From positions 1 to 64,000 of IMG/VR virus record IMGVR_UViG_2619619029_000002: a DNA stretch of 64,000 nucleotides. One strand, written 5' to 3'. Both the position numbers and the translations under genes were made by a program. Below are positions 26,052-58,294 of the stretch, piece by piece. Within the stretch, counting starts at the first letter, position 1. The number at the start of each line of letters is the position of its first letter. Source of the DNA: a virus (taxonomy: Duplodnaviria; Caudoviricetes). The notes under the pieces are model-generated. The model was not told the DNA's origin and did no database searches. It saw only the letters and a program-made list of their open reading frames with translations.

Positions 26052-26630
26052 TCAGCGGAACGCCGACGAGTCTCCCCACTCCGTCACAGGGACGAAGCGC
26101 AGCCCTTCCGGCAGCGGCGACAGGGCGAGTACCCGCTCGACCACCGTCCGGTGAAATACGTGGACCACGGACTCGGCGAGGCGAAAGACCAGGCGCTCTT
26201 CGAGAGGAGTCTCGCCAAGCACCGCTTCATCCAGGAAGAGCTTGTCGAGGCTCAGCAGAGTCAATCCGCTCCGGGAGGTCTCAAAAATGGAGCGATTCCG
26301 GTCCATGCAGCGAATCGACCGCCACATGTGAACCAGCCAGTAGCGCAGCACAAAGTCCCCGACCTGAACGTCTGCGGGGACGAGCTGGACGCCGTGGAGG
26401 TCGACAGCCTCCAACGCCTCCTTCACCCTGGTGGAGACGACTGGCGCTGGCAGACTGTGGTGGTCCACCATGACCGGCCTGGGCGGAATGGGCTCCCCTA
26501 GCTTGAGCCTCACCGGCTCGTGGACCACAACGGGCGCGGGCTTGAGAAAGGGGAGGTACTCCTGGTCCCACGTCAGCAGCGGGTGCTGCTGGGACCGAGC
26601 GCGCATGAGGACGCAGTAGTCGTCTTGCAT
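26052..26630 (-). CDS. Imm11/DUF1629-like immunity protein
   Basis: D…LPAPVVS.RVKEALEA…GVQLVP…YWLVH…I.CMD..RS pattern; 3 bp downstream of the AHH gene. Confidence 0.8.
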   Translation of the reverse strand: MQDDYCVLMRARSQQHPLLTWDQEYLPFLKPAPVVVHEPVRLKLGEPIPPRPVMVDHHSLPAPVVSTRVKEALEAVDLHGVQLVPADVQVGDFVLRYWLVHMWRSIRCMDRNRSIFETSRSGLTLLSLDKLFLDEAVLGETPLEERLVFRLAESVVHVFHRTVVERVLALSPLPEGLRFVPVTEWGDSSAFR

Positions 26631-27459: not shown

Positions 27460-27870
27460 TCACGTACCGGCGCCGATGCTCTCGCGCTGCCTCACCGCGC
27501 GGAGGAACTGCAAGAGAGGAGTCGGCGCCCCCAGCACCTCGAGGATTTCCTCCCGAGTGGCGAAGCCGCGCAGGTGGATGCCGTTGAGGCACCCGTCGCA
27601 GATGAAGTCAGCGTCCGTGGCGAGCCCCCACGCCGCGCGTGTCGCCGGCGGCACCATGGACACGTCCGCCATCATGTCCGCCTGCTGCCGCCGCCCGCAT
27701 GGGCATGGCCGCAATGGGTTCTCCGGCTCCTCCACCTCCGTGGGCCGCAGAATCTCACCGGCTGGCCCGCGCGCTGGCTCGCCCGTCATGGCGCGGATAG
27801 ACGCGGGCGCCGAGCGGGTACGCCGAGCGTCGAGGTGGTCCTTCAGCGTCTTCAGCTTCCACAGTGTCAT
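27460..27870 (-). CDS. Hypothetical tail-associated protein
   Basis: ATGA overlap with the tail fibre stop; CPC…CDGC. Confidence 0.65.
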   Translation of the reverse strand: MTLWKLKTLKDHLDARRTRSAPASIRAMTGEPARGPAGEILRPTEVEEPENPLRPCPCGRRQQADMMADVSMVPPATRAAWGLATDADFICDGCLNGIHLRGFATREEILEVLGAPTPLLQFLRAVRQRESIGAGT

Positions 27871-29771
27871 GCGTCCAGGGCCTCCCAATAGAGCATGTCG
27901 CCCACGTCCGGCGTCTTCGAGGCGTATTGGTCCGTCGAGGTGCTGTAGGTGACGCCCGCCCCAGCATCCACGCTGGAGTGCCAGACGTGCGCGGTGGGAT
28001 GGTTACTTCCCGGCGGCACGGACACGGACTTGATGCGCAGGCGCAGCCGGTCCGCTGCGCCCAGGCCCGGAGCCGCCGCCGTCAGTACCTCGCCGATGTG
28101 CGTGTTCACGGACTGCACCCAGTTGACGGTGTTGTTGTTGGAGTTGGCCCACAGGGTGGTTGTCGCGCGTTCCACCCAGGACTGCCCCACGTCCAGGCTG
28201 TCCAGCGCCACGACGATGCTTCCCTGGGCGGAGCCCGGCTCCCAGCTCCCGCCCGCCCCCATCTCGCCTGTGCGCGGGGGCGTCAGCAGGTAGATGGTGG
28301 CAGTGAAACGGAGCGCGTACTGGTCGTTCGTCGCCGGGGCGTTGCTGAGCACCACCTCCACCGTGGAGCCGATGCCGGTGGCGAGGTTGGCCGAGCTGGC
28401 GGGGTTGTTCGTCCGGGCCGTGACGATGCCGCCGCGCTGGCGCAGCCGAGCGCGCAGCGTGAAGCCACTGCCCCCATTCATGATTGCCTGGGTGTCATCG
28501 TACGTCGGCAGCGCCGCGTTGTAGGTCCCCGTCTCGCTGCCGCTGCCCGTCGCCCCCCACTTCGCCCGCGGCTCGTGCGTCAGGCCGCCGCGCAACAACA
28601 CCATGGGCGTGTTTTGAAACGGGGGGTTGAAGGCCACATAGGCCCCGTGCGCGGCGAGCTGCGCTTGGCGCCCCTTGGCGATGGTACGCGGCGCCCCACT
28701 CCCATCGGAGATGCCCACGTTGTAGCTGATGCTCCCGTCCGGGTTGAGAGCCGTGTACACGCGCGGGGTTGCGGACTCATCGAAGACGTCCACCACTGCG
28801 GAGTCGAAATCCGTCACGCCGTTGCCCGCGTCCAGGTTGGCGATGAGCACCAGGGACACGTACCGCGTGGCCTGGTGCATGGGCCGGGGGTTGCGCGGGT
28901 CCTGCGAGGGCCAGTTCTCCGTGACGTTGGCGGACAGCCCCTTCACCCAGCCCGCGAATTCGCTGTACCCGGTGGACGCCGGCAGCACCGCCCCGGAGAT
29001 GCAGTAGTAGTGCTGGCTGCCCAAGTCATTGAGGCCGGCCGCGTTCACCATGGTGACGCCGTCCGCCGCCCACCCGACGAGGCCGCAGTACACCGCCTTC
29101 CCGCCGGACGTGGGCTCCTGAAACTGCCGCACGCGGCAGCGCAGGCGGTACAGCTTCGACGGGTCGTACGGCAGCTTCACCGTGGAGTAAATCCACACCG
29201 CGTTGGTGCACCGCAGGGCGTTGCCACCGGAATAGCCCTGGCCGGAAACGAGGGACGCTGCCGGCGGCGGCAGGAGGGGGTTGCGCTCCCAGTTGCCCAA
29301 GTCGAAGGGCGAGCGCTCGAAGGACTCGGTGAATGCGCCCACGGCATTCCGGGAGGCCTCCTGTGCGGCCGCAGCGGGGACATTCTTCAAGTTCGCGGTG
29401 GCCAACTTCACCATGTCGGGGTCCGCCACCACCGCGCCCCCGAGGACGCGCCAGTCGCTCTGCGTGCCGTTGGAGTACAGGGCCTGGACGGCGCACTTCA
29501 CCTCCACCGTGGAGGCCAGGCGCAGCGACACCACCGCGCGGCGCTCAGAGGGGCCCACGCGCACCGGCTCCAGGAGGTAGGTGTCCGTATTGTTGGGGTC
29601 GTCCCCCTCGTAGACGGCCACGCTGAAGCCCAGCAGGAGGTGCGCGGGCAGCGTCTCCACGTGCTCCCAGCGAATGTCAAAGTGCCGCGGCCGAAGCACG
29701 CGCGGGTTCGGCTCGCCCGGCGTGACGTCCACGTCGATGCCGCCCTGCAACTCTTTTTCGCGTGAGCGCAT
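27867..29771 (-). CDS. Tail fibre / receptor-binding protein (FN3-like + carbohydrate-binding-like domains)
   Basis: Beta-rich, follows gpJ; YDPSKLYRLRCRVRQ…VSLVLIAN CBM-like segment. Confidence 0.7.
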   Translation of the reverse strand: MRSREKELQGGIDVDVTPGEPNPRVLRPRHFDIRWEHVETLPAHLLLGFSVAVYEGDDPNNTDTYLLEPVRVGPSERRAVVSLRLASTVEVKCAVQALYSNGTQSDWRVLGGAVVADPDMVKLATANLKNVPAAAAQEASRNAVGAFTESFERSPFDLGNWERNPLLPPPAASLVSGQGYSGGNALRCTNAVWIYSTVKLPYDPSKLYRLRCRVRQFQEPTSGGKAVYCGLVGWAADGVTMVNAAGLNDLGSQHYYCISGAVLPASTGYSEFAGWVKGLSANVTENWPSQDPRNPRPMHQATRYVSLVLIANLDAGNGVTDFDSAVVDVFDESATPRVYTALNPDGSISYNVGISDGSGAPRTIAKGRQAQLAAHGAYVAFNPPFQNTPMVLLRGGLTHEPRAKWGATGSGSETGTYNAALPTYDDTQAIMNGGSGFTLRARLRQRGGIVTARTNNPASSANLATGIGSTVEVVLSNAPATNDQYALRFTATIYLLTPPRTGEMGAGGSWEPGSAQGSIVVALDSLDVGQSWVERATTTLWANSNNNTVNWVQSVNTHIGEVLTAAAPGLGAADRLRLRIKSVSVPPGSNHPTAHVWHSSVDAGAGVTYSTSTDQYASKTPDVGDMLYWEALDA

Positions 29772-29780
29772 GCTTTGTCT

Positions 29781-32297
29781 CTACGGTGGAGGGGTGGAGG
29801 AAACCGTCATGGTGACGGACGCGGGGGTGGTGGGCGCCGCGCGCACGGTGACGGTGGTGTCGTTGGTGGAGTAGTTGCCCGTGGTGTCGATGGCCTTTAC
29901 CCGCACCACGTGGTCTGCAGGCCCAGGCACGGGCCACTCGTGCGCGGTGGCGCGTACCTTGGAGATGAAGGTGGCCGAGGCCCAATCCGCCCCGCCGTAG
30001 CGCAACTCGTAGGTGTCGCGGTCCAGGTCCGGAATCTCGCTCCACCGCAGCGTGGCCGTGTTGCCGTTGAGGGTGTAGCCGAGTCCCTGCACGTCCGAGG
30101 GCGGCGCCAGCTTGCCTTGCACGTTGAGCGAGGCCTCGGCGTAGGCGGTAACGAAGCCGTTGAGGACAGCCGCCACCTGTACGGAGTACGCGCCCGGGTT
30201 GATGTCGCGTAGCTCCCAGAAGTGCGTCTGCACCCCCGTCACCGTCGTCCAATTACCCCCGTCCACGCGCCAGCGCACCACGTACTCGGTGGCGCTGGGG
30301 CGCTGCGCCCAGCGGGCGTTGAGGGACACCTTCACCCCGCCATTCGTCGTCTTGTAGAGGCTCTCCCCCAGCACGAGGTCCGCGGGTGGCGCCGAGGAAG
30401 GCAGCACGGAGGTGGGCACCGGCTGCAACTTCACGCCGAGCTCCACCTCGTCGTACTTCCCCGGGTGGTGGCGCAGCGCCGTGACTTCGTAGAGGTGCGG
30501 CTCGACTTCGGCCACGCTGAGAATCCGCCACGTCGTGGGCGCCAAGTCGGACGCCGCGAGCACCCAGACGGCATTCCGGGCGGGCGCCACGGGGAACGGC
30601 GTGGCGACGGTGAGGGCCCGGTACGGCGCCGGCGCCGCGGGCGCCAGCTCGCGCTCCACCGCCGTCCCGTCCGGCATCACCACAGAGAGGGAGTACGTCT
30701 TCCCCGCCTCCAGGGTGACGTCCGCGTCCAGCTCTACCTGGGTGGCAGTGGCGGCCACCACGCGGCCGCCCCAGCGGCGCCCGGCCCGGTACGGGTCCTG
30801 AAGCTTCACCACCGCGCCGGGGTTGCGCAGGGCGCCCTCGAGTCCCGTCCGGAACACCACCGTCTCCGTCTCCAGCCTTTCGGTGAAGAGGAGCCACCGG
30901 CCCACCCGCTGCGCCTGGCCGCGCGAGGTGCACCCCAGCGCCACCACCTCGGTGGGGTTGTAGCCGTACTCGAGCAGGCCTTCCTCGTCCGTCACGTACT
31001 CCTTCGCCGACTTGTAGTGGTTGGCCGGGTCGTTCCACGTCACCAACGCGACGGTGTGCCGCGCGCGCCGGCCGCTGCTGGAGTACGTGAAGAGTCCGTC
31101 CACCACGTTGGCCGGGGTGAAGAGGTACTCGGCGTCCCGGGGTGCGTCCTGGGCCACGTACACCGCCCCGCTGGCCCAGTACGTCAGGCTGCGGAAGACG
31201 GAGGCGAGGTTGTTCACCACCTGGTACGCGTCCGCCTGCGACTGGAGGTAGAGGTTGCAGCGGAAGCGCGGCTCCTGGCCGCCCTTCCCGTCCGGCACCA
31301 ACTCGTCGCAGTAGCGGCCGATGGTGTACAGCCCCCACTTGTCGACGTGGGACTCGTTGAGGAAGCGCCCCAAGCCGTAGCGCTTCGTCGTCAGCAAGTC
31401 GTAGAAGCACCACGCAGGGTTGTCCGTCCACTCCACCTTGAAGGTGCCGTCCCAGGTGCCCGAGTACTCCCGCGTCAGCGGGTTGTAGTTGCTGGGCACC
31501 CGCACCTTCAGCCCCCGAATCCGGTACGAGCGCGTGGGCACCGTCTGAAACTGGTGCGCGGACACCTGGAGGGCGACCAGCGCGCTGTTGGGGTAGCTGA
31601 GCTTCTCGTCGATGAGGGTGGCGTAGGACTTCCACAGCGTCTTGTCCTGCAGGTTGGCCTGCGTGCTGTCCGCGGTGAGGCGCCGCACGCGGATGTCCCA
31701 CGGCGCGCTGCCGGTGAGCTCCACGCGGTACGTCCGCTCGTAGGGGCTGGTGCACTTGCCGGCGATGACTCCCGCCCCCTCGAGGTCCTGCTCAACGTAG
31801 CCGCCGCCGTTGCTCTGCACGTCGATGGCGATGTGCACCAAGGACGGCATCAGGTCGCCGGTGAGCGCACTCTGGAAGGTGAGCTGCGGCACCTGCACGG
31901 TGATGCGCACCGCGTCCACGTTGGCGTCGCTGACGGTGCGGACGACGGGCGCGTTGCGCTTCACCTCGGTGTTGACGGAGAACTCCGCCTCCGCCGACGG
32001 AAAGCCGGGGATGTACTCCTGCCCCTGCGTCCCCTGCACGTCGTAGAGGGTGACGTCACGGAAGTTGTAGGTGTCGTTGGGATTCTGGACGACGACGCCG
32101 TCCAGGTAGACGGACTTCAGCTTGTCCACGAGCCCGACGATTTCCCCCTCGCAAAGCAAGTCCAGCACGCGGGCGTAGTTGGTGGACTTCAGCGTGTCCG
32201 GGAGCTCCACGGGCGTGCGCTGCGCGCCGCCACCGCCCTTGCCCCCATTCGCCCCGCCGTAGCCGATGAGGGGGGCCAGCTCAGATTTCGACTTCAT
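29781..32297 (-). CDS. Central tail fibre / host specificity protein J (lambda gpJ-like)
   Basis: LDLLCEGEIVGL, YPNSAL, WTDNPAWCFYDLLT.KRYGLG, EPRF.CN and FTPANVVDG.F.YS motifs. Confidence 0.95.
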   Translation of the reverse strand: MKSKSELAPLIGYGGANGGKGGGGAQRTPVELPDTLKSTNYARVLDLLCEGEIVGLVDKLKSVYLDGVVVQNPNDTYNFRDVTLYDVQGTQGQEYIPGFPSAEAEFSVNTEVKRNAPVVRTVSDANVDAVRITVQVPQLTFQSALTGDLMPSLVHIAIDVQSNGGGYVEQDLEGAGVIAGKCTSPYERTYRVELTGSAPWDIRVRRLTADSTQANLQDKTLWKSYATLIDEKLSYPNSALVALQVSAHQFQTVPTRSYRIRGLKVRVPSNYNPLTREYSGTWDGTFKVEWTDNPAWCFYDLLTTKRYGLGRFLNESHVDKWGLYTIGRYCDELVPDGKGGQEPRFRCNLYLQSQADAYQVVNNLASVFRSLTYWASGAVYVAQDAPRDAEYLFTPANVVDGLFTYSSSGRRARHTVALVTWNDPANHYKSAKEYVTDEEGLLEYGYNPTEVVALGCTSRGQAQRVGRWLLFTERLETETVVFRTGLEGALRNPGAVVKLQDPYRAGRRWGGRVVAATATQVELDADVTLEAGKTYSLSVVMPDGTAVERELAPAAPAPYRALTVATPFPVAPARNAVWVLAASDLAPTTWRILSVAEVEPHLYEVTALRHHPGKYDEVELGVKLQPVPTSVLPSSAPPADLVLGESLYKTTNGGVKVSLNARWAQRPSATEYVVRWRVDGGNWTTVTGVQTHFWELRDINPGAYSVQVAAVLNGFVTAYAEASLNVQGKLAPPSDVQGLGYTLNGNTATLRWSEIPDLDRDTYELRYGGADWASATFISKVRATAHEWPVPGPADHVVRVKAIDTTGNYSTNDTTVTVRAAPTTPASVTMTVSSTPPP

Positions 32298-33354
32298 GCG
32301 GTGCCTCCGGGTCTGCGCGCTTGGCGTTGTGCGAGAGGAAGCTCAGCGTCTGGTACGTGTGCGCGCCGTCCACGGTGATGCGCACCACGGGCCCGCGTCC
32401 GCACGCCGCCACCTCCCGCACCACGCCGGGCTGGGCACCCAGCAGCAGCGCGCCGGGCACCAGGTGCCGCAACTCCACCCAGTCCGCCTCGGTGCGCACG
32501 CGGTGGTTGTACGTGCCCACGAAGGCGCGCCCGTCCTCCAGCTCCAACCGCCAGCACTCCGCCTCCAAGAGGGCCACGTCCGTGACGGGGTACGCGCCCC
32601 ACCGCAGCGTCGTCTCCTGCTGGGTGAGGACGCGCATGCCCACCTCCACCTCGCCGGCGGGCACCTCCCGCCCGTCGGCCAGGAGAATGGGCACCCACGG
32701 CGCCGGGCACCCGCCGCCCGAGGGCCCCTGCCCGCCCGGCCCCGTCTGCCCGCTGCCGTACTTCCCGCCGAAGCCGCCGCCCTCGCTCCACTCGGTGACG
32801 ATGCCTGCGGAGATGACGCAGGAGCCCACCTCCAGCTCGCCGTAGCAGATGGGCACCGGGTGGCCCTGGGCCAGCGTGTTGACGGGCCCGTTGAAGGCGT
32901 AGTTGGGCTTGTTCTTCGGCTCCTCGTCTGGCGCCGCGGGCACAGGCGGGGCGAAGAGCATCTGCGAGACGCCGCCCACCACCAGGGAGGCGCCCATGGT
33001 GATGAGGGGCGTGCCGGCGCCGAAGCCGTAGGCCGAGAGGGCCGCGCCGCCCGCGATGAGGACGGCGCCCAGCACCACCTGGAAGACGCCCTGCTTCGCC
33101 CCGGCCAGCGCCGGCATGACGGTAATGACGGGCGCGTCGGCGGGGCGCGTCAGCTCGTCCTGGCCCACGTCGCGCTTGCCGACAAAGACGTGGAAGCCCG
33201 GCTCGCTGTGCGTCACCAGGTAGCGCGCGAAGCCCTCGCACACCGCAGAGAGAGCGCGCACGGCCTCCGCGGGCGAGGGCACGCTCAAGTCCAACCGCCA
33301 GACGCGGCCGAAGCGCCGGCCCAGCGGACCTCCGAGTACCACCGTCGTCAGCAT
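32281..33354 (-). CDS. Tail assembly protein I (lambda gpI-like) fused to a C-terminal Hint domain
   Basis: G.LGRRFGR…SPAEAVRAL, P.LAGAK.G.FQVVLGAVLI and Y.FNGPVNT.AQG.PVP..YG motifs, then a Hint domain. Confidence 0.93.
   Translation of the reverse strand: MLTTVVLGGPLGRRFGRVWRLDLSVPSPAEAVRALSAVCEGFARYLVTHSEPGFHVFVGKRDVGQDELTRPADAPVITVMPALAGAKQGVFQVVLGAVLIAGGAALSAYGFGAGTPLITMGASLVVGGVSQMLFAPPVPAAPDEEPKNKPNYAFNGPVNTLAQGHPVPICYGELEVGSCVISAGIVTEWSEGGGFGGKYGSGQTGPGGQGPSGGGCPAPWVPILLADGREVPAGEVEVGMRVLTQQETTLRWGAYPVTDVALLEAECWRLELEDGRAFVGTYNHRVRTEADWVELRHLVPGALLLGAQPGVVREVAACGRGPVVRITVDGAHTYQTLSFLSHNAKRADPEAPHEVEI
32326..32709 (-). other. Intein-like Hint (BIL-type) domain within gpI
   Basis: Starts at Cys216 (CPAPWVPILLADG); block B TYNH; block F VVRITVDGAHTY; ends at LSHN (Asn343); the +1 residue is Ala. 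Confidence 0.88.
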
Positions 33355-34079
33355 AGGGCGCGGTGTCGGACTACTTTCCGGGTGATTCGCTCCCAGAAGC
33401 CCGAGTACGTCTCCCTTCCAGAGAGGCGATTCTGGAGGTGGTGGAGGACGACGTCCGCCCCCAAGTAGACGCCCGCGTGGTTGGGCACCGGGGCGCGCAA
33501 TTGCATGAGGAGGACGTCATGCTCGCGCAGCGCCTGGCCGGTGACGTCCACGAAGCCCGCCTGGGCGTACCCCTCCAGGTAGAGGTTGCCGCCCTTGTCC
33601 CACCAGCCGTTCGGCCGGTGGAAGTCGGGCAGCTCAAGGCCCAGCCGCTCCTGGAAGTAGTCGCGGATGAGGGAGAAACAGTCCAGGACGCCGTGGCTGA
33701 AGGGGCGGCCCACCAGCGGCGGCCGGTACCCGGTGGGGTGCCACACCCGCCAGTGGCCCACGGGCACGTTGACGATGAGCCAGGGCAGGCCCCAGCGCTC
33801 CATGCTGACGCGGTCCGCCTCGCTCGGCTCCGGGGCGGCGTTGGGGTGAGAGTGCACCACCGCCACCACCTCCCCTTCCTCCTCCGCTCGTGCGTAGTCC
33901 TCCGGGTGGAGGATGAAGTGGGCTTGCCCCTCGGCCTGGTTACGGCAGGGCACGTACCGCTGCTCCCCGGCGACGGACACCACGAGGCCGCAGGACTCGC
34001 GGGGGAACTCGGTTCGCGCATGGCGCAGCGCTGCTTCGACGACAGCGCCTGAGAGGGAAAGCACGGCTAGAGCGCTCAT
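33348..34079 (-). CDS. Tail tip protein K (JAB/MPN + NlpC/P60)
   Basis: PRESCGL, VHSHP…SEADR, GRPF.HGVLDCF and NHAGVYLG…LHH motifs. Confidence 0.95.
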   Translation of the reverse strand: MSALAVLSLSGAVVEAALRHARTEFPRESCGLVVSVAGEQRYVPCRNQAEGQAHFILHPEDYARAEEEGEVVAVVHSHPNAAPEPSEADRVSMERWGLPWLIVNVPVGHWRVWHPTGYRPPLVGRPFSHGVLDCFSLIRDYFQERLGLELPDFHRPNGWWDKGGNLYLEGYAQAGFVDVTGQALREHDVLLMQLRAPVPNHAGVYLGADVVLHHLQNRLSGRETYSGFWERITRKVVRHRALC

Positions 34080-34135: not shown

Positions 34136-35479
34136 TCAGCTACTCCTTGTTTTCTGCAACGACTCGATTCCTTTCCGGTCAAAACGAATAGACCCACCAG
34201 TCGGCAGAGGGAGCGACACTTCTGCAGACGCCCCAAGAATGGCGGAGGCCAAGCGCTCCGAAGCATCAAGCGGCTCCTCTGATGCCGTATCTGAGCCAAA
34301 GAGCCCTGAACTGAGCCGATCAATCAGAATCGTCGGCGGTTCTGTCCCCTTCTCGGTCTTCCACTCCAGCGCTGTTTCCACTAGCCAACTCGCGCGGTCG
34401 AGATCCAAGCCGAGCCGCTTCAGACGGAACTCCTCAGAGGCATGCTGCTCAAGCCAGCGATTATTCCACTTAATATAAAACACAAGAGCGCTCACAAACC
34501 CCGCCGTCAGCGCAGCCTGCTTCACACCCCAAAACACCCATGCAGCAACAGATATTGGAACACCAGTAACAATCAAGTACACATTCACAACCGATGACAC
34601 GACGGTCAAAACCAGGAGACTACCCGCAAGCCACAAGCTCGCATTCTTGACTGGATTCCTAAGCTCTTTCGTCCCCTCGGTCAGACTGAATTTCTCAGCA
34701 CTGGCCTGCAGCTCCCTTTTCTGGTCCTTCCGAATCTCACGGCGAACGTGGCGAGTGTCGCGGTCATCAATCTCTGCCATCCTTCGCGTGATTTCCTTTT
34801 CTCGCGCTTCCAGGCTGGCCTCGCGCTCCTGAAGCATCGACGCAATTCGATTTCGTTCAACCACATTTGCAACATCAAGTTCATGCCGACGAGCAACATA
34901 CTCTTCTTCAAGCCGTGCGCGCGTCGCAGCAATTCCATCTGCAAGCTTCGCCGCCATCGAGCGCCCAAGCTCTTCCACCTTAAGCAACTCAACTTCACGG
35001 CGCTCCAAGAATTGCTTAGTCTCCCCCAAGCGCCCAAGTTGGCCAACAATGCCATCTCGGGCATCAAGGGCGCGCACTGCCCTCTTAAATGCAGCAACAA
35101 ACGAAACCACTGCGGCAACCACAGCCGGGGACTCCCCAATGTGATTAAACTCGCTCAGACTAACGGTCACGTTATCCAATGCAGTGCCGGCTGCTCGTTG
35201 GATTTGCACCGAAAACTGGCGGTTCCCGTACGCCATGCCGACAGCAAGACTCGTAATTGCCATCGACTCGCTCGGGAGCGAATCCAGAATCAGACGACAT
35301 GTCTTCACAGACTCATCACGCGCTGACAAAGCGGGCCCTATATCCAGCGTCGCGTCGACACTGATGATTCTGAATCCAGACTTCACCACATCAGCTTCCG
35401 AAAATACTCCAAGAATCGCCGACAACAGCCCTTGGTCTGTCTGTCGCACCGCTTGGAACGAGAAGTTTGACCACCCCAT
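34136..35479 (-). CDS. Low-GC moron: coiled-coil + 2-TM membrane protein of unknown function
   Basis: Atypical codon usage; long heptad region; two TM helices, then EEFRLKRLGLDLDRASWLVE. Confidence 0.8.
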   Translation of the reverse strand: MGWSNFSFQAVRQTDQGLLSAILGVFSEADVVKSGFRIISVDATLDIGPALSARDESVKTCRLILDSLPSESMAITSLAVGMAYGNRQFSVQIQRAAGTALDNVTVSLSEFNHIGESPAVVAAVVSFVAAFKRAVRALDARDGIVGQLGRLGETKQFLERREVELLKVEELGRSMAAKLADGIAATRARLEEEYVARRHELDVANVVERNRIASMLQEREASLEAREKEITRRMAEIDDRDTRHVRREIRKDQKRELQASAEKFSLTEGTKELRNPVKNASLWLAGSLLVLTVVSSVVNVYLIVTGVPISVAAWVFWGVKQAALTAGFVSALVFYIKWNNRWLEQHASEEFRLKRLGLDLDRASWLVETALEWKTEKGTEPPTILIDRLSSGLFGSDTASEEPLDASERLASAILGASAEVSLPLPTGGSIRFDRKGIESLQKTRSS

Positions 35480-35527
35480 TAGACAACCCCCTTGTCGAGT
35501 CAACTAGCCAGCCGAGCCGACACTATC

Positions 35528-37117: not shown

Positions 37118-38020
37118 ATGGCGAAGTCTCGTCGGATGACGGTTCATTTCTATCGCGTGAACATGCCCCAAGGGCACGAGTTCCAGACCCTCCTTAACAC
37201 CGTGTTCGGATTCTCAGCCGCCGAGAGATCTATCGAAGTCGGTGGGGTCCCCTATCGTTTGGAGTCCCTCACGATGGACAGCAGATACTGCGAAGGAGAA
37301 ATGGTTCGACTGCGCGAAGACTACCACCCCGGCAAGTACCGCATGGATGCACAAGGGGCGACCGACCTTGGATTGGCGGAAGATGAGCTCATTGGTGAAG
37401 AAACGGCTTTCATCTATGACACCAGCCTGAACATTTTGGGACTTCAAAAGGTTCATGGCGGCGTTGCGGCCGGTGCCTTTGCTGGCTACTTCCGCCGGTT
37501 CATCCCGACCGCAGCAGACGCATTTGGACTGGAGGTCGTGCTGAGTGCGGACCCGGTTCGCCAGATGACACAGTTGCGCGAAGTGAAAACGTTCGAGGTA
37601 GAAGTCGCAGCTGTGCCAACGGACGTGTTTCACGGGATGGACACGATGAAGGCCCTCGCGAGAACGCAGGCTGAGTCAGGCGCTACCCGCGTTACCCTGT
37701 CACTGGGGATGGGGAGAACGCGTGGAGGCGCCATCGAACGCAATTTTGTGGACGGCCTTCTCAGTAATCTCCTGCGGGTCTTTGCCGAGGAAGAACATGG
37801 GAAGAACGCCATCAAGAAGCTCAAGGTAGGCGGCCCTACTGGAGAAGACCTTGAGGTGCCGATTATCGACCTGCTTTCCCATCGGCTGGTCCACTACCAA
37901 CGGTATGAATGGGATGACAGATACGTCCCTTATACTATGCGGCGCCCCCTAGTTAAGTGGGCGTACGAGGCTAGGGAGAACGAACTCCGAACCGCATATG
38001 GCCCCAGGGCAAATTTATGA
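37118..38020 (+). CDS. DUF6731-like soluble protein (moron)
   Basis: V.FYRV…G.MVRLR…IGEETAFIYD…LQK..GG pattern; lower GC; opposite strand to the tail genes. Confidence 0.7.
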   Translation: MAKSRRMTVHFYRVNMPQGHEFQTLLNTVFGFSAAERSIEVGGVPYRLESLTMDSRYCEGEMVRLREDYHPGKYRMDAQGATDLGLAEDELIGEETAFIYDTSLNILGLQKVHGGVAAGAFAGYFRRFIPTAADAFGLEVVLSADPVRQMTQLREVKTFEVEVAAVPTDVFHGMDTMKALARTQAESGATRVTLSLGMGRTRGGAIERNFVDGLLSNLLRVFAEEEHGKNAIKKLKVGGPTGEDLEVPIIDLLSHRLVHYQRYEWDDRYVPYTMRRPLVKWAYEARENELRTAYGPRANL

Positions 38021-38613
38021 CGACTCAGAGTCCTTCAACTTCAACACTATCCAGGAAGAAGAAGGTCGCCATCATCTGGGAACGGGTGTACCCCAGCACT
38101 GTTGGAGTGATTGTGACTGCTGCGGCTGCGGGCGCTCGCTGGAAGTTTCCCGAGTGGAAGCTTCCCAGCGACCTGGGGCAACTTTTCTCGTCCACCCTGG
38201 ACCTTGGAGCCATCGCTATCGGATTCTTGGCGACCGCCAAGGCTGTCTTGCTCTCGATCCAAGGGAGCCCTGCCGTTACGAAGATGCGAGGAACCGGCCT
38301 GTATGAAGGACTACTCAGATTCATTCTGAGAGCTATTCAAGCAACCTTCACTCTGGCGGCGTATAGCCTCGTAGCTATTTTCCTTGAGAAGGCTTTCGAT
38401 CATTCGACGCTAAAATGGCAACTTGTCGTGCTCATATGGATTTTCTTGGTCGTTACAGCAGGACTCGCTTGCTACCGCGTTATTGACGTCTTCTTCACGA
38501 TCCTCAGCCCTCGCGACATTTCGACACTTGCTCCTAAGGAGCAGAGTAGTTCTGCTACACCTCTCACTATCCTTCCTCCTTCGCGGAAGGAACCGATGCA
38601 AGGTGATAACTGA
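38017..38613 (+). CDS. Four-TM membrane protein coupled to the DUF6731-like gene
   Basis: ATGA overlap; LFSSTLDLGAIAIGFLATAKAVLLSI plus three further TM helices. Confidence 0.8.
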   Translation: MTTQSPSTSTLSRKKKVAIIWERVYPSTVGVIVTAAAAGARWKFPEWKLPSDLGQLFSSTLDLGAIAIGFLATAKAVLLSIQGSPAVTKMRGTGLYEGLLRFILRAIQATFTLAAYSLVAIFLEKAFDHSTLKWQLVVLIWIFLVVTAGLACYRVIDVFFTILSPRDISTLAPKEQSSSATPLTILPPSRKEPMQGDN

Positions 38614-38931: not shown

Positions 38932-39387
38932 CTACTCCCCCAACCAGAAAGAGCGACCGCCGCTCTTCAGCGCTCGAGCGAGGAACTCCTCGAATGACGG
39001 TGCAATCGGGTCCACCTTCGGGAATGTCTCATGGAAGGCGTCGAACAGAGGGTACCTTGGGGACTTCGGCTCCACGTCGACGACGACGTAGTTGGTGTCC
39101 TGCATGTCGACCAGGGCATACAGCGACGGTGAGCCGTAGGCGTCTTCGTCGCGGCCGAAGATTGCGACGCGCGCACGTCGAATCTCCGCCAGCGGGAGAA
39201 TCCGATAGTCCGCGTCAGGGACAGGCTCGAAGAGCGCCGCTCCATCGCAGTGGAGGTAGAAGGCTCGCAAGTCAGCATCAAGCTTCCAGCCCACGCGAGC
39301 CTCGAATGCCGCGATTTGGGCAGGCGTCGCGGGAGCGTTGGGGAAGTGGTGTCGCGAGACTTCGGCGAGCAGGGAGTCGATGGGCAT
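38932..39387 (-). CDS. SMI1/KNR4 (SUKH) immunity protein
   Basis: PATPAQIAAFEARVGWKLDADLRAFYLHCDG…IAPSFEEFL. Confidence 0.9.
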   Translation of the reverse strand: MPIDSLLAEVSRHHFPNAPATPAQIAAFEARVGWKLDADLRAFYLHCDGAALFEPVPDADYRILPLAEIRRARVAIFGRDEDAYGSPSLYALVDMQDTNYVVVDVEPKSPRYPLFDAFHETFPKVDPIAPSFEEFLARALKSGGRSFWLGE

Positions 39388-39394
39388 GGCCGCC

Positions 39395-40036
39395 TCAGTC
39401 CACGTAGGGCCGCTCCGGCCCCACGGCTCGCCACTTGCCAGCAGCGTCGTAACAAGCCGGGTAGGCGCTGTTGATGACGTGATGCACGCCGGGCGGCACA
39501 GGAATCACATTGTCGGGAGCCAAGGGAGCGCCCCCATGCGCCAAGTCGAAGATGTGGTGGCCAGGCCAATGCGCCGTCTCCGTCTTCGGCCAGTCCCCGA
39601 ACTCCGAGCTCCACTGCCTGCGGAACGTCTTCCGCGCGTCCTCCCACGTCTCGCGTCGATGCTTGAGGTCCGACACCTTGGGGTAGTCGCAGCAGCAGTG
39701 GGTGACGGCCAAGCGCCCGCCCGCAGCGGCCGGAAGCGCCATGAAGCGCCCCTGCCAGTCGCCCTTGATGTCCGCGAGCCAGATGCAGCCGAGCAGCGGG
39801 ACGTGCCCCTCGGCCACGCACCGCCGCTCACAGCGCGCCATGAGCGCGGCACTGCACAGCCAGGGTCCGTAGTAGATGGTCGTCTGCACCGTCCCACCTG
39901 CCGGGCTCGGGATGCTCGGGCCCACCCACTTCGCCGAGGGCTTCGCGCCCACGGCGCTGACGGTGGCCGAGCCGCAGCCGCCAAGGGCGAGCAGCAGGGA
40001 CACTCTCACGAAGTGCTGGCAGCGCCATGGCTTCAC
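39395..40036 (-). CDS. Lipoprotein with a C-terminal HNH-like nuclease (SitA-like toxin)
   Basis: Lipobox LALGG|C; WPGHHIFDLAHGG…DNVIP…H; directly upstream of SUKH. Confidence 0.8.
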   Translation of the reverse strand: MKPWRCQHFVRVSLLLALGGCGSATVSAVGAKPSAKWVGPSIPSPAGGTVQTTIYYGPWLCSAALMARCERRCVAEGHVPLLGCIWLADIKGDWQGRFMALPAAAGGRLAVTHCCCDYPKVSDLKHRRETWEDARKTFRRQWSSEFGDWPKTETAHWPGHHIFDLAHGGAPLAPDNVIPVPPGVHHVINSAYPACYDAAGKWRAVGPERPYVD

Positions 40037-56310: not shown

Positions 56311-56523
56311 TCAGGCCCTCCCCTCTTCCGCGTTGCCCTGGCGCCGCAGGTGGACGTAGGCCCAGGTGTCCGAGGCCAAGCGCGTCAGTCGGCGACGGTG
56401 CGGGTCCTCCAGGTGCGCGGAGAAGCGCACCACCACCCAGACGGAATCGCGCCGGGCCACCCGAGGCAGGCCTCGGCCGCGCAGGCGCCGGCCAGTCCCT
56501 GGGCGATGACGGGCGGCCTTCAC
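56311..56523 (-). CDS. Small basic hypothetical protein
   Basis: GTGA overlap with the JAB stop; ends 1 bp before the portal start. Confidence 0.4.
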   Translation of the reverse strand: MKAARHRPGTGRRLRGRGLPRVARRDSVWVVVRFSAHLEDPHRRRLTRLASDTWAYVHLRRQGNAEEGRA

Positions 56524-57020
56524 TGGCCACCTCCCGTCATGCGCAGCGGGGCGTCCTCGCCTCGAACCATGGTGAAGAGGGCCACCTCAACGGACTCCAT
56601 GCCCGGCGGTCCCGCCAGCAGCAGCTCCAGCACCGCGGGCATGTCCGGCGTCAGCGTCTCGCGAATGGAGGCGAGGTCCATGGCGGACAGCACGGGACGG
56701 CCGCCCGGGTGCGTGTGCCAGTCGCCCAGGTAGCGCAGGCGCGGCCACACGCGGTGCACCAGCCGGTTGTCGCGGGCCCTGTCCGCCTCGAAGGTGTAGC
56801 GGGCAAGGCGCACATTCCGCCCCGGGCCCGTCACCGCGACGACGTGGGCCTCGCCGTCCACCACGTGCCCCAGCAGCATGCCGCCCGTCTCCATCGGCGC
56901 GGCGGCGCGCGCCAGGCGGGCCGCCTTCGCCAGGGCGGACTGGGACAGCCAAGCCCGGTACCCGTCCGCCACGTACAGAGCGGCTGCACTCCCCGTGGGC
57001 TTCGCGCACGCGGCCGGCAT
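56520..57020 (-). CDS. Stand-alone JAB/MPN (Mov34) metalloprotease
   Basis: ETGGMLLG, VTGPG and YLGDWHTHP….S..D motifs; TGATG coupling to the terL stop. Confidence 0.9.
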   Translation of the reverse strand: MPAACAKPTGSAAALYVADGYRAWLSQSALAKAARLARAAAPMETGGMLLGHVVDGEAHVVAVTGPGRNVRLARYTFEADRARDNRLVHRVWPRLRYLGDWHTHPGGRPVLSAMDLASIRETLTPDMPAVLELLLAGPPGMESVEVALFTMVRGEDAPLRMTGGGQ

Positions 57021-58294
57021 CAGTAGTAGCTCCCCACCCGCATGGTGCTGGAGGGGGCGGACGCCACCGCCATGCCGCCGGCGACCGCGTCCAGCCCGTC
57101 GTCGTGGACGCCTGGGTTCGGAGCGGCGACGGCTTCTTCCACCCACCAGTTGTTCCATGCACCGCGCAGCAGGTGGACATTGCCCGCCTGGGCCTGGGAG
57201 CTGACCGGCCCCCACATCTCCACCTTGCTTCCCGTCTTCCGGTGCCCACGGACGGTGAAGCCGAAAAGGACGCGCGCGGTGTAGTTGTAGGTCGTGTTCT
57301 TCCCGCTGCTGCCGCCCTCCTCCTCAAGCCAAATCGGGACGGCCCGCCCATCCTCCTCAGCCGTTGCGCGGATGAAGGCTTCCACCTCGCGGGGCGTGCC
57401 GCGGATGCGGCGCACGTCGCGTATCCACAACTCGTGCGCGCCGCCCTCCAGCTTCCGCACCGCCACCTTGGCGCCTGCCGTCCAGTCCGGGTCGTTCTTG
57501 GGCTTGCCCCTCGCCCCCACACGCTCCTCGGTGGCGGCCAGGTCCCAGTAGCGCAGCCACCGCAGTCCGGCCGGCACTTCATCCACGAAGTGGAACCACT
57601 CGCGGCGGAACAGCTTGCCTGCCGGGCGGACGTTCCAGTCGCCATGGCGGAGTTGCATCCGCAGGACAGGGTCTGCGATGGCGGCGAGGCTTTTCTCGTA
57701 CTCCGCCTTGTTGAGGCTGGGGTTGTCCTCCAGCTTCGAGGGCACGAAGGCAACCTCGCTGCTGGGCGGGACGTCGATGAACTTCGCCTTCACCCATTCA
57801 TGGCCAATGCCGCCTGGGTTGGCACTCCCTCGCATGCGCAGCGGCACATCCATGGACTCCGGCTTGCGCAGGCGCCCATGAAGGTAGTCGTACATGGGCT
57901 GGGTGAACTGCGTCGCCTCGTCGAAGCCGATGAACTGGTACGCCGCGCCCTGGTAGTTGTAGACGTCGTCCGCGTGCTGAAGGTACGCGAACTTCAGCAC
58001 GCTCCCCGCGGGGAAGCTCCACTGGTGAAGCTCCTTGTCCCAGTGGGCATCCGTCCCCATCAACCACGCCTTGCTGCGGGGAATCAGCGCGTCAGGCTGG
58101 TTCAGGTCCTGGTACGTGCGCCGAAAGAGGACGGCGGCGTACCCCGGCACATCGACGTACTGAAGCGCCGCCATGAGGAGCGCATCGGACTTGCCGCCGC
58201 CTGCGGCCCCACCGAAGAGCACCTCGCGCACCGCGCCCAGCAGGAGGAATGCCGCCTGGGTGGCGTGCGGCCGGTGCGGCACGTACTTAGTCAT
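57020..58294 (-). CDS. terL: Terminase large subunit
   Basis: LFGGAAGGGKS (Walker A), IGFDEATQF (Walker B), ANPGG.GH.WVK, WDLAAT, HDD.LDA. Likely start ATG 58294; the ORF extends to 58408. Confidence 0.96.
   Translation of the reverse strand: MTKYVPHRPHATQAAFLLLGAVREVLFGGAAGGGKSDALLMAALQYVDVPGYAAVLFRRTYQDLNQPDALIPRSKAWLMGTDAHWDKELHQWSFPAGSVLKFAYLQHADDVYNYQGAAYQFIGFDEATQFTQPMYDYLHGRLRKPESMDVPLRMRGSANPGGIGHEWVKAKFIDVPPSSEVAFVPSKLEDNPSLNKAEYEKSLAAIADPVLRMQLRHGDWNVRPAGKLFRREWFHFVDEVPAGLRWLRYWDLAATEERVGARGKPKNDPDWTAGAKVAVRKLEGGAHELWIRDVRRIRGTPREVEAFIRATAEEDGRAVPIWLEEEGGSSGKNTTYNYTARVLFGFTVRGHRKTGSKVEMWGPVSSQAQAGNVHLLRGAWNNWWVEEAVAAPNPGVHDDGLDAVAGGMAVASAPSSTMRVGSYY

Follow-up and report, generated by a model that had tools for sequence, protein, structure and literature searches.

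A-type bacterial intein-like (BIL) domains are defined by Hint motifs, a C-terminal His-Asn pair, the lack of a nucleophile at the first position after the domain (+1), and a location in variable regions of non-conserved proteins (PMC7765530). A passage of the same article, citing Amitai 2003 and Dassa 2004, states that BIL domains cleave one or both of their junctions without a +1 nucleophile, and that they can splice via a freed alpha-amine (Dassa 2004, as cited there). BIL2 of Tetrahymena thermophila joins the C-terminus of its N-extein to the epsilon-amine of a lysine as an isopeptide (PMC8616854), and autoproteolytic release in polymorphic toxins is the proposed role of the pretoxin Hint, PT-HINT (PMC3482391). 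The lambda tail assembly protein gpI is a virion component, which forms a structural plug of the tail tip by cryo-electron microscopy and, when DNA is ejected, may become inserted in the outer membrane of the host (PMC10721106, PMC11101478). Here we describe a fusion of gpI with a C-terminal Hint domain, gpI::Hint, which is encoded in a stretch of 64,000 nucleotides (the window; positions 1 to 64,000 of the IMG/VR virus record IMGVR_UViG_2619619029_000002).

The gpI::Hint protein consists of a whole gpI, a Gly-rich linker, a Hint domain and a short tail. Judged from sequence and a structural model, the C-terminal domain is a real Hint with all the residues for autoprocessing, and looks catalytically intact. 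The Hint most likely removes itself from gpI via a thioester at Gly215-Cys216, a reading to which we give a probability of about 60%. The gene, on the minus strand, contains the following features:

32281..33354 (-): gpI::Hint open reading frame (ORF), P0001, 357 residues; stop codon 32281-32283.
33100..33354 (-): N-terminal ubiquitin-like beta-grasp of gpI, residues 1-85 (Pfam Lambda_tail_I; AlphaFold2 (AF2); PMC1779556).
32950..33099 (-): hydrophobic helical hairpin, residues 86-135, the counterpart of lambda gpI H1/H2 (AF2 helices 90-108 and 114-134; alignment to 8iyk_I and 25vf_9; PMC11101478).
32785..32949 (-): plug and beta-strand region, residues 136-190, where the gpI homology stops (alignment; low monomer predicted local distance difference test score, pLDDT).
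32710..32784 (-): Gly-rich linker, residues 191-215 (25 residues), with Gly-Gly-Gly before the Hint (translation).
32326..32709 (-): BIL-type Hint domain, residues 216-343 (128 residues; family profile against the PDB, AF2, Foldseek, invariant residues).
32707-32709, 32503-32514 and 32326-32331 (-): codons of Cys216, of Thr281 to His284 and of His342-Asn343, respectively.
32284..32325 (-): 14-residue tail, residues 344-357; Ala344 is +1 and the conserved Lys345 is +2 (codon 32320-32322).

Much of this architecture had been proposed in the original prediction, and was borne out by the translation: the Gly-rich linker string is present exactly as quoted (residues 192-215), the 128-residue domain carries the expected Hint motifs, and the 14-residue tail opens with Ala344-Lys345. 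The prediction also held in that the domain is of mini-intein size, with no endonuclease, and in that its codon usage is phage-like, with a GC content at third codon positions (GC3) of 0.95 for gpI::Hint versus 0.94 for gpJ and 0.89 for gpK.

AF2 modelling, which had been set as a check of the Hint fold, gave a confident model of residues 206-357 (pLDDT 91, predicted template modelling score (pTM) 0.82). The model has the horseshoe beta-fold of the Hint superfamily, and motifs A, B, F and G correspond to Cys216, T281-Y-N-H284, the block F-like segment VVRITVDGAHTY, and H342-N343. In a Foldseek search with this model, the best PDB match was Tetrahymena BIL2 (6y75/6tmm, E 1e-10, template modelling (TM) score 0.77-0.80), followed by DnaB inteins, the Clostridium BIL 2lwy (TM 0.76-0.84), and Hedgehog (1at0/6tyy, TM 0.72-0.76). 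There were 66 PDB matches at E<=1e-3, and among the matches listed all were inteins, BIL or Hedgehog, with TM 0.6-0.8.

A profile of 51 family members detected the same structures by sequence. The best PDB matches were the Hint 8w20 (E 4e-14), the NpuDnaB intein 4o1r (2e-12), and the Clostridium thermocellum BIL 2lwy (2.5e-11); matches to inteins and BIL ranged from 4e-14 to 1e-8 and included the gp41-1, DnaX and RecA inteins, while Hedgehog was matched weakly. These scores do not part the Hint from inteins, because 2lwy scores about the same as the DnaB and gp41-1 inteins and below 8w20. By its motifs, the domain is an A-type-like BIL: it has the Hint motifs and the conserved His-Asn, lacks a +1 nucleophile, and occurs in variable, non-conserved proteins. 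Other searches were less informative. NCBIfam gave weak matches only, to the intein parts of other proteins, a single-sequence search of the PDB reached E 0.16, no PHROGs family covered the Hint part, and a fold search of BFVD returned only generic viral inteins and Hint proteins.

To place the Hint among its relatives, an exhaustive search was carried out, which returned 587 clusters related to the domain, 288 of them at E<=1e-10. The gpI Hint belongs to a large family that occurs on numerous tail-tip and fibre proteins of phages, with gpI as only one of the carriers. Family members lie mostly at the C-termini of these proteins; they begin with a CPAPW-like sequence, nearly always after poly-Gly, and positions -2 to -4 are mostly Gly. 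Among 57 relatives, the partner domains included gpJ-type Phage-tail_3 (12/57), Rcc01698_C (4/57), and Phage_Tail_Tip, PB4 spike, carbohydrate-binding, fn3 and collagen modules; in the same set, Pfam recognised PT-HINT in 19/57 and Intein_splicing in 5/57. Some family Hints are associated with tape-measure-like C-termini, and in some relatives the Hint lies upstream of those.

Conservation was examined in 165 copies, which are cluster representatives, mutually related and found with a motif-bearing query, in alignments that are independent of the Lys. Among divergent members, the only invariant columns are those of Cys1, the block-B His and His-Asn, with Cys1 present in 149/149 copies and His-Asn in 165/165. 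A Lys follows the His-Asn at +1 or +2 in 159 of the 165 copies, and at +3 or +4 in the other six. Even where the stop is only 2-8 residues away (73 copies), the Lys occupies +1 or +2 in 71, and every protein extends at least as far as its Lys. As judged from these alignments, His-Asn followed by Lys is a new family signature. Between gpI::Hint and its copy in a sister species, the ratio of nonsynonymous to synonymous substitution rates (dN/dS) came to 0.13 over the whole protein, with the Hint at 0.15 and the beta-grasp at 0.17 (one pair, few changes). The Hint is under purifying selection, like the rest of gpI.

Further arrangements were seen in the wider family. Some relatives contain two or three tandem Hint copies, spaced 4-8 residues apart including one Lys (...SHNKLDS then CPTPD...); relatives with tandem Hints or with a Hint before a tape-measure-like C-terminus are P0123, P0126, P0139, P0144, P0155, P0172, P0197, P0209 and P0214. 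In other genomes of the same genus and family, fn3 proteins of about 1070-1100 residues end in a family Hint (Gly run, CVAPW..., ...AHNLKPRD-stop). These include L012 8086-11298 (-), which is P0265, and proteins in L004, L005, L007 and L009; the gpI protein of these genomes was not found with this query.

The gpI part was predicted to be full length, and residues 2-188 indeed align end to end with solved tail assembly proteins. The region matches the tail assembly protein family phrog_32 (E 1.6e-54, residues 2-188), and phmmer aligned residues 2-188 with 25vf_9 (E 9e-38), with 9l9p_A, and, at E 3.6e-25, with chain residues 19-215 of the 223 of lambda gpI (8iyk_I). Over residues 5-86, Pfam Lambda_tail_I scores 25.8 bits, above its cut-off of 23.8. 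The beta-grasp, the hairpin, the C-terminal strands and the locus between gpK and gpJ are all those of lambda tail assembly protein I (PF06805 / phrog_32). Hint-free gpI proteins end 8-12 residues past a shared ISAGI motif, or bear unrelated extensions of 20-80 residues. Because gpI homologues end 8-12 residues after ISAGI, the linker, Hint and tail have been appended to a whole gpI, not inserted into it.

In the full-length AF2 model, a confident beta-grasp (residues 1-81, pLDDT ~97) is followed by the hairpin (90-134), by residues 140-215 without structure, and by a Hint that is again confident (216-343). The pTM of 0.46 suggests that the domains are independent. In lambda gpI, the stretch matching the unstructured region threads into gpJ and folds only against it, so a low monomer pLDDT is expected, and the C-terminal strands pair with the outer gpJ domains HDII, the HDII-insertion and FNIII-A (PMC10721106). 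The gpI beta-grasp was described by Iyer et al., who proposed that the JAB domain of gpK cuts it off, and did not mention a Hint (PMC1779556). The original prediction had drawn on this proposal. Its elements are present here, namely the ubiquitin-like beta-grasp and an adjacent JAB/NlpC gpK, but the link to the Hint is indirect, because the structural C-terminal part of gpI precedes the Hint and puts it about 130 residues away from the ubiquitin-like domain.

A search for gpI-Hint fusions, as suggested in the original prediction, found about 16 full-length homologues in Myxococcus, Corallococcus, Pyxidicoccus and metagenomes, and a sister species has a copy with 92% identity. The recurrence of the fused ORF in these homologues, together with the 92% identical copy, places the fusion far beyond chance. 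An assembly or frameshift artefact was ruled out, as the fused ORF is conserved in several species. A second, divergent gpI-Hint group (P0022, P0047, P0059, P0099) also has a C-terminal Hint, and retains Cys1 and HHN-x-K while the block-B His is absent. The K-I-J gene order, within M-L-K-I-J, is conserved in the two independent gpI-Hint groups. Most gpI proteins in the database lack a Hint. In trees, gpI-linked Hints fall at 7-9 places among the Hints of other proteins; a single clade is nevertheless compatible with the approximately unbiased (AU) test (p 0.18). A tblastn search of the Hint against 50,697 GenBank phage records gave no match at 1e-5; at E<=1 the matches were confined to inteins of terminase or UvsX and a single faecal phage without annotation (E 2e-4).

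We propose that the Hint acts as a self-removing module. Cys216 would attack the carbonyl of Gly215 in an N-S acyl shift, aided by Thr281/His284, to form a thioester. Resolution of the thioester would free gpI from the Hint, and cyclisation at His342-Asn343 would cut the second junction. With hydrolysis, the mature gpI would end at Gly215; alternatively, the short Ala-Lys tail could be re-attached through its alpha-amine or through Lys345. Transfer in cis to Lys345 with Asn cyclisation would give a gpI with a short branched tail, and transfer in trans would cross-link tail-tip proteins. The analysis establishes the domain architecture, the fold, the conserved catalytic residues, purifying selection and the link of the family to phage tail-tip proteins; that the chemistry occurs, its timing in tail assembly and the fate of the thioester are points that we infer. 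The catalytic positions are the most conserved columns of the family, which is the pattern of an active enzyme.

Several observations weigh against self-removal of an active Hint. Pfam searches with the whole gpI::Hint protein and with its C-terminal part alone gave no Hint match even at E<=10; because of this and the weak single-sequence match, the identification of the Hint rests on the family profile and the fold. Class-1 inteins mostly have Asp at a block-F position that is occupied by Arg or Lys here, and a difference in kinetics or mechanism may follow. Hydrolysis alone does not account for the retention of His-Asn and Lys in copies that lie 2-5 residues from the end of the protein; splicing via the freed alpha-amine, known from BIL domains, or transfer to a lysine, known from BIL2, could explain it. 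Lastly, removal of the Hint is not forced, because the C-terminal strands of lambda gpI pair with outer gpJ domains and other phages tolerate extensions of 20-80 residues.

The conserved Lys raises the idea that His-Asn-x-Lys Hints are lysine-directed ligases or splicers of phage tails, which would pass the Gly215 thioester to the epsilon-amine of a downstream Lys. We regard this as doubtful. If it were true, a Lys on the same chain would give an isopeptide 'branched splice', and a Lys on a neighbouring gpI of the trimer or on gpJ would give a covalent tail-tip lock; neither E1 nor ATP would be needed, and the phage JAB peptidases could edit the bonds.

It is unlikely that the Hint serves for ligation instead of disposal, with the Gly215 thioester attacked by a Lys amine of gpJ, gpL, a neighbouring gpI of the trimer, or the host envelope. 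The C-terminal Gly-Gly-Gly of gpI would then be covalently cross-linked without E1, as for Tetrahymena BIL2. The best structural match of the Hint is BIL2, which forms Lys isopeptides (PMC8616854), but the BIL2 Foldseek scores are hardly above those of ordinary inteins. Likewise, the Lys right after His-Asn in 159/165 copies suggests that lysine chemistry near the active site matters, but this Lys lies in cis on the protein's own tail, which points to self-splicing and not to a target in trans. The N-extein ends in Gly-Gly-Gly, like ubiquitin-like proteins, and the two JAB peptidases of the prophage could act on such bonds; on the other hand, the ubiquitin-like domain of gpI is 130 residues from the junction, and no acceptor was identified.

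Retention of the Hint as an external knob, with the catalytic residues kept for other reasons or acting only on host contact, is also improbable. It is sterically possible; the Hint follows a flexible linker of 25 residues, and unrelated extensions are tolerated at the C-terminus of gpI in other phages. The FNIII-A domain of gpJ is on the outer surface. The second gpI-Hint group, without the block-B His, suggests that N-terminal cleavage may not be essential in all cases. However, the most conserved columns in more than 150 divergent copies are the catalytic ones, which indicates an active enzyme and not a scaffold, and Hint folds of this size are not known to have a ligand-binding feature.

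A canonical (class 1) intein, which as a selfish element would excise itself and reconnect two parts of gpI, can be dismissed as very improbable despite the presence of Cys1, TxxH and the terminal His-Asn and the match of the family profile to inteins, because the +1 residue is Ala344 as the original prediction had stressed (across the family +1 is never Cys, and Ser/Thr in only 8/165), there is no homing endonuclease, gpI is whole before the linker, the Hint is appended 14 residues before the stop codon with a tail that is no part of gpI, and 105/165 family copies lie <=20 residues from the end of the protein.

The direct neighbours of gpI::Hint are as follows:

33348..34079 (-): gpK, JAB and NlpC/P60 peptidase, upstream neighbour (Pfam Prok-JAB E 5e-18, NLPC_P60 E 1e-12).
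29781..32297 (-): gpJ, central tail-tip protein, 838 residues, downstream neighbour, without a Hint (Pfam FNIII-A_GpJ E 2e-40, Phage-tail_3 E 4e-24).

The 3' end of the gpI::Hint ORF overlaps the start of gpJ by 17 nucleotides, and a Pfam scan shows the gene order M-L-K-I-J around gpI::Hint, as in lambda. The window's genome contains one Hint copy. The host element looks like a complete siphovirus prophage of a myxobacterium, with genes for terminase, portal, MuF, capsid, tail tube, tape measure, gpM, gpL, gpK, gpI-Hint, gpJ and fibre.

Other features of the window were also recorded. The gpJ protein (838 residues, short for its family) ends at a TAG in the region 29760-29800, and a fibre-like ORF of 634 residues (27867..29771 (-)) with its own ATG continues in frame 9 nucleotides on; this ORF matches PHROG tail and tail-fibre families. 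The pair could represent a split central fibre, a nonsense mutation or readthrough. Between gpL and gpK lies a low-GC ORF of 455 residues (34136-35503 (-); GC3 0.56 versus ~0.9 around it), which by eye looks rich in coiled coils, with transmembrane segments, and had no Pfam or PADLOC match. A different low-GC gene occupies the corresponding place in the sister prophage of another species, so the gpL-gpK gap is a hotspot for cargo genes. A low-GC pair at 37118-38613 (+), opposite to the tail genes, encodes a DUF6731 protein (E 1.8e-16) followed by a 198-residue ORF without a match; PADLOC found nothing in the pair.

A second, stand-alone Prok-JAB protein (56520-57215 (-), E 7e-13) is encoded directly upstream of the large subunit of the terminase. 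The late region also contains, at 38932-40036 (-), a 213-residue ORF without a Pfam match followed by a SUKH/SMI1_KNR4 protein (E 2.5e-18), and an Imm11 protein (E 3.4e-11) is encoded at 26052-26630 (-). These immunity-type genes are probably toxin-immunity cargo.

Literature searches found no paper on a gpI-Hint or a phage-tail Hint, in agreement with the original prediction, which knew of no such description in a lambda-type tail tip. Hint/BIL chemistry has been described before, and phage genes often contain inteins; the new elements are gpI as the carrier, the placement at the end of tail-tip proteins, and the signature His-Asn-x-Lys. If the self-processing is true, a domain on the exposed end of gpI would bring into siphophage tail assembly a step of post-translational maturation that we did not find in the literature. 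The presence of the family on gpJ-like, fibre and tape-measure-like proteins of uncultured phages suggests that such a step may be widespread in host-recognition machinery. The His-Asn-x-Lys ending offers a concrete and cheaply testable hypothesis on Hint chemistry without a +1 nucleophile, and compact C-terminal Hints after poly-Gly could serve as protein-engineering tools.

Among known systems, gpI::Hint shares with the A-type BIL, such as that of Clostridium thermocellum (2LWY), the mini Hint, Cys1, TxxH, His-Asn, and the lack of a +1 nucleophile and of an endonuclease. It is also like these domains in its site, which a passage of PMC7765530 (via Amitai 2003 and Dassa 2004) gives as variable, non-essential regions of surface or secreted proteins. 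Unlike A-type BIL, the family sits on tail-tip and fibre proteins of phages, in most cases at their extreme C-terminus behind poly-Gly, and has its own CPAPW start and His-Asn-x-Lys end; Pfam and PHROGs miss the gpI Hint.

As in BIL2 of T. thermophila BUBL1 (6Y75/6TMM), the Hint follows a Gly-terminated N-extein, and gpI also has a ubiquitin-like domain; sequence identity to BIL2 is about 20%. In BIL2 a lysine amine replaces the +1 Cys/Ser/Thr (PMC8616854), and the conserved Lys of the gpI Hint would be compatible with this. In BUBL the BIL comes directly after the ubiquitin-like domain and a second such domain supplies the acceptor Lys, whereas in gpI the beta-grasp (1-85) is separated from the Hint start (216) by the hairpin and plug, and the only conserved Lys is at +2 of the 14-residue tail.

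The Hedgehog Hog domain (1AT0, 6TYY) is likewise a C-terminal Hint, and frees an N-terminal functional part via a Gly-Cys thioester. A Hog-type assignment was rejected, since Hog has a sterol-recognition region and lacks the terminal His-Asn, whereas the gpI Hint has His-Asn and no such region, only its 14-residue tail. For the same reasons transfer to a lipid, which the original prediction had entertained, is not suggested. PT-HINT (PF07591; Streptomyces 8W20) is closest by sequence profile (8w20 E 4e-14). This assignment was rejected as well: gpI::Hint has no Pfam match to it at E<=10, PT-HINT is followed by a toxin domain whereas only 14 residues and no toxin or other domain follow the Hint here, and 8w20 lacks a Lys after His-Asn.

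The peptidase S74 chaperone domains of tailspikes and fibres, C-terminal domains that remove themselves after folding or assembly, offer a functional analogy only, as they have an unrelated fold, a Ser-Lys dyad and trimer-dependent chemistry. With respect to lambda gpI (8IYK, 8XCG), the N-terminal 190 residues are an orthologous module in the same M-L-K-I-J order; lambda gpI and nearly all homologues stop about 10 residues past the last strand, whereas gpI::Hint continues into a linker and a Hint.

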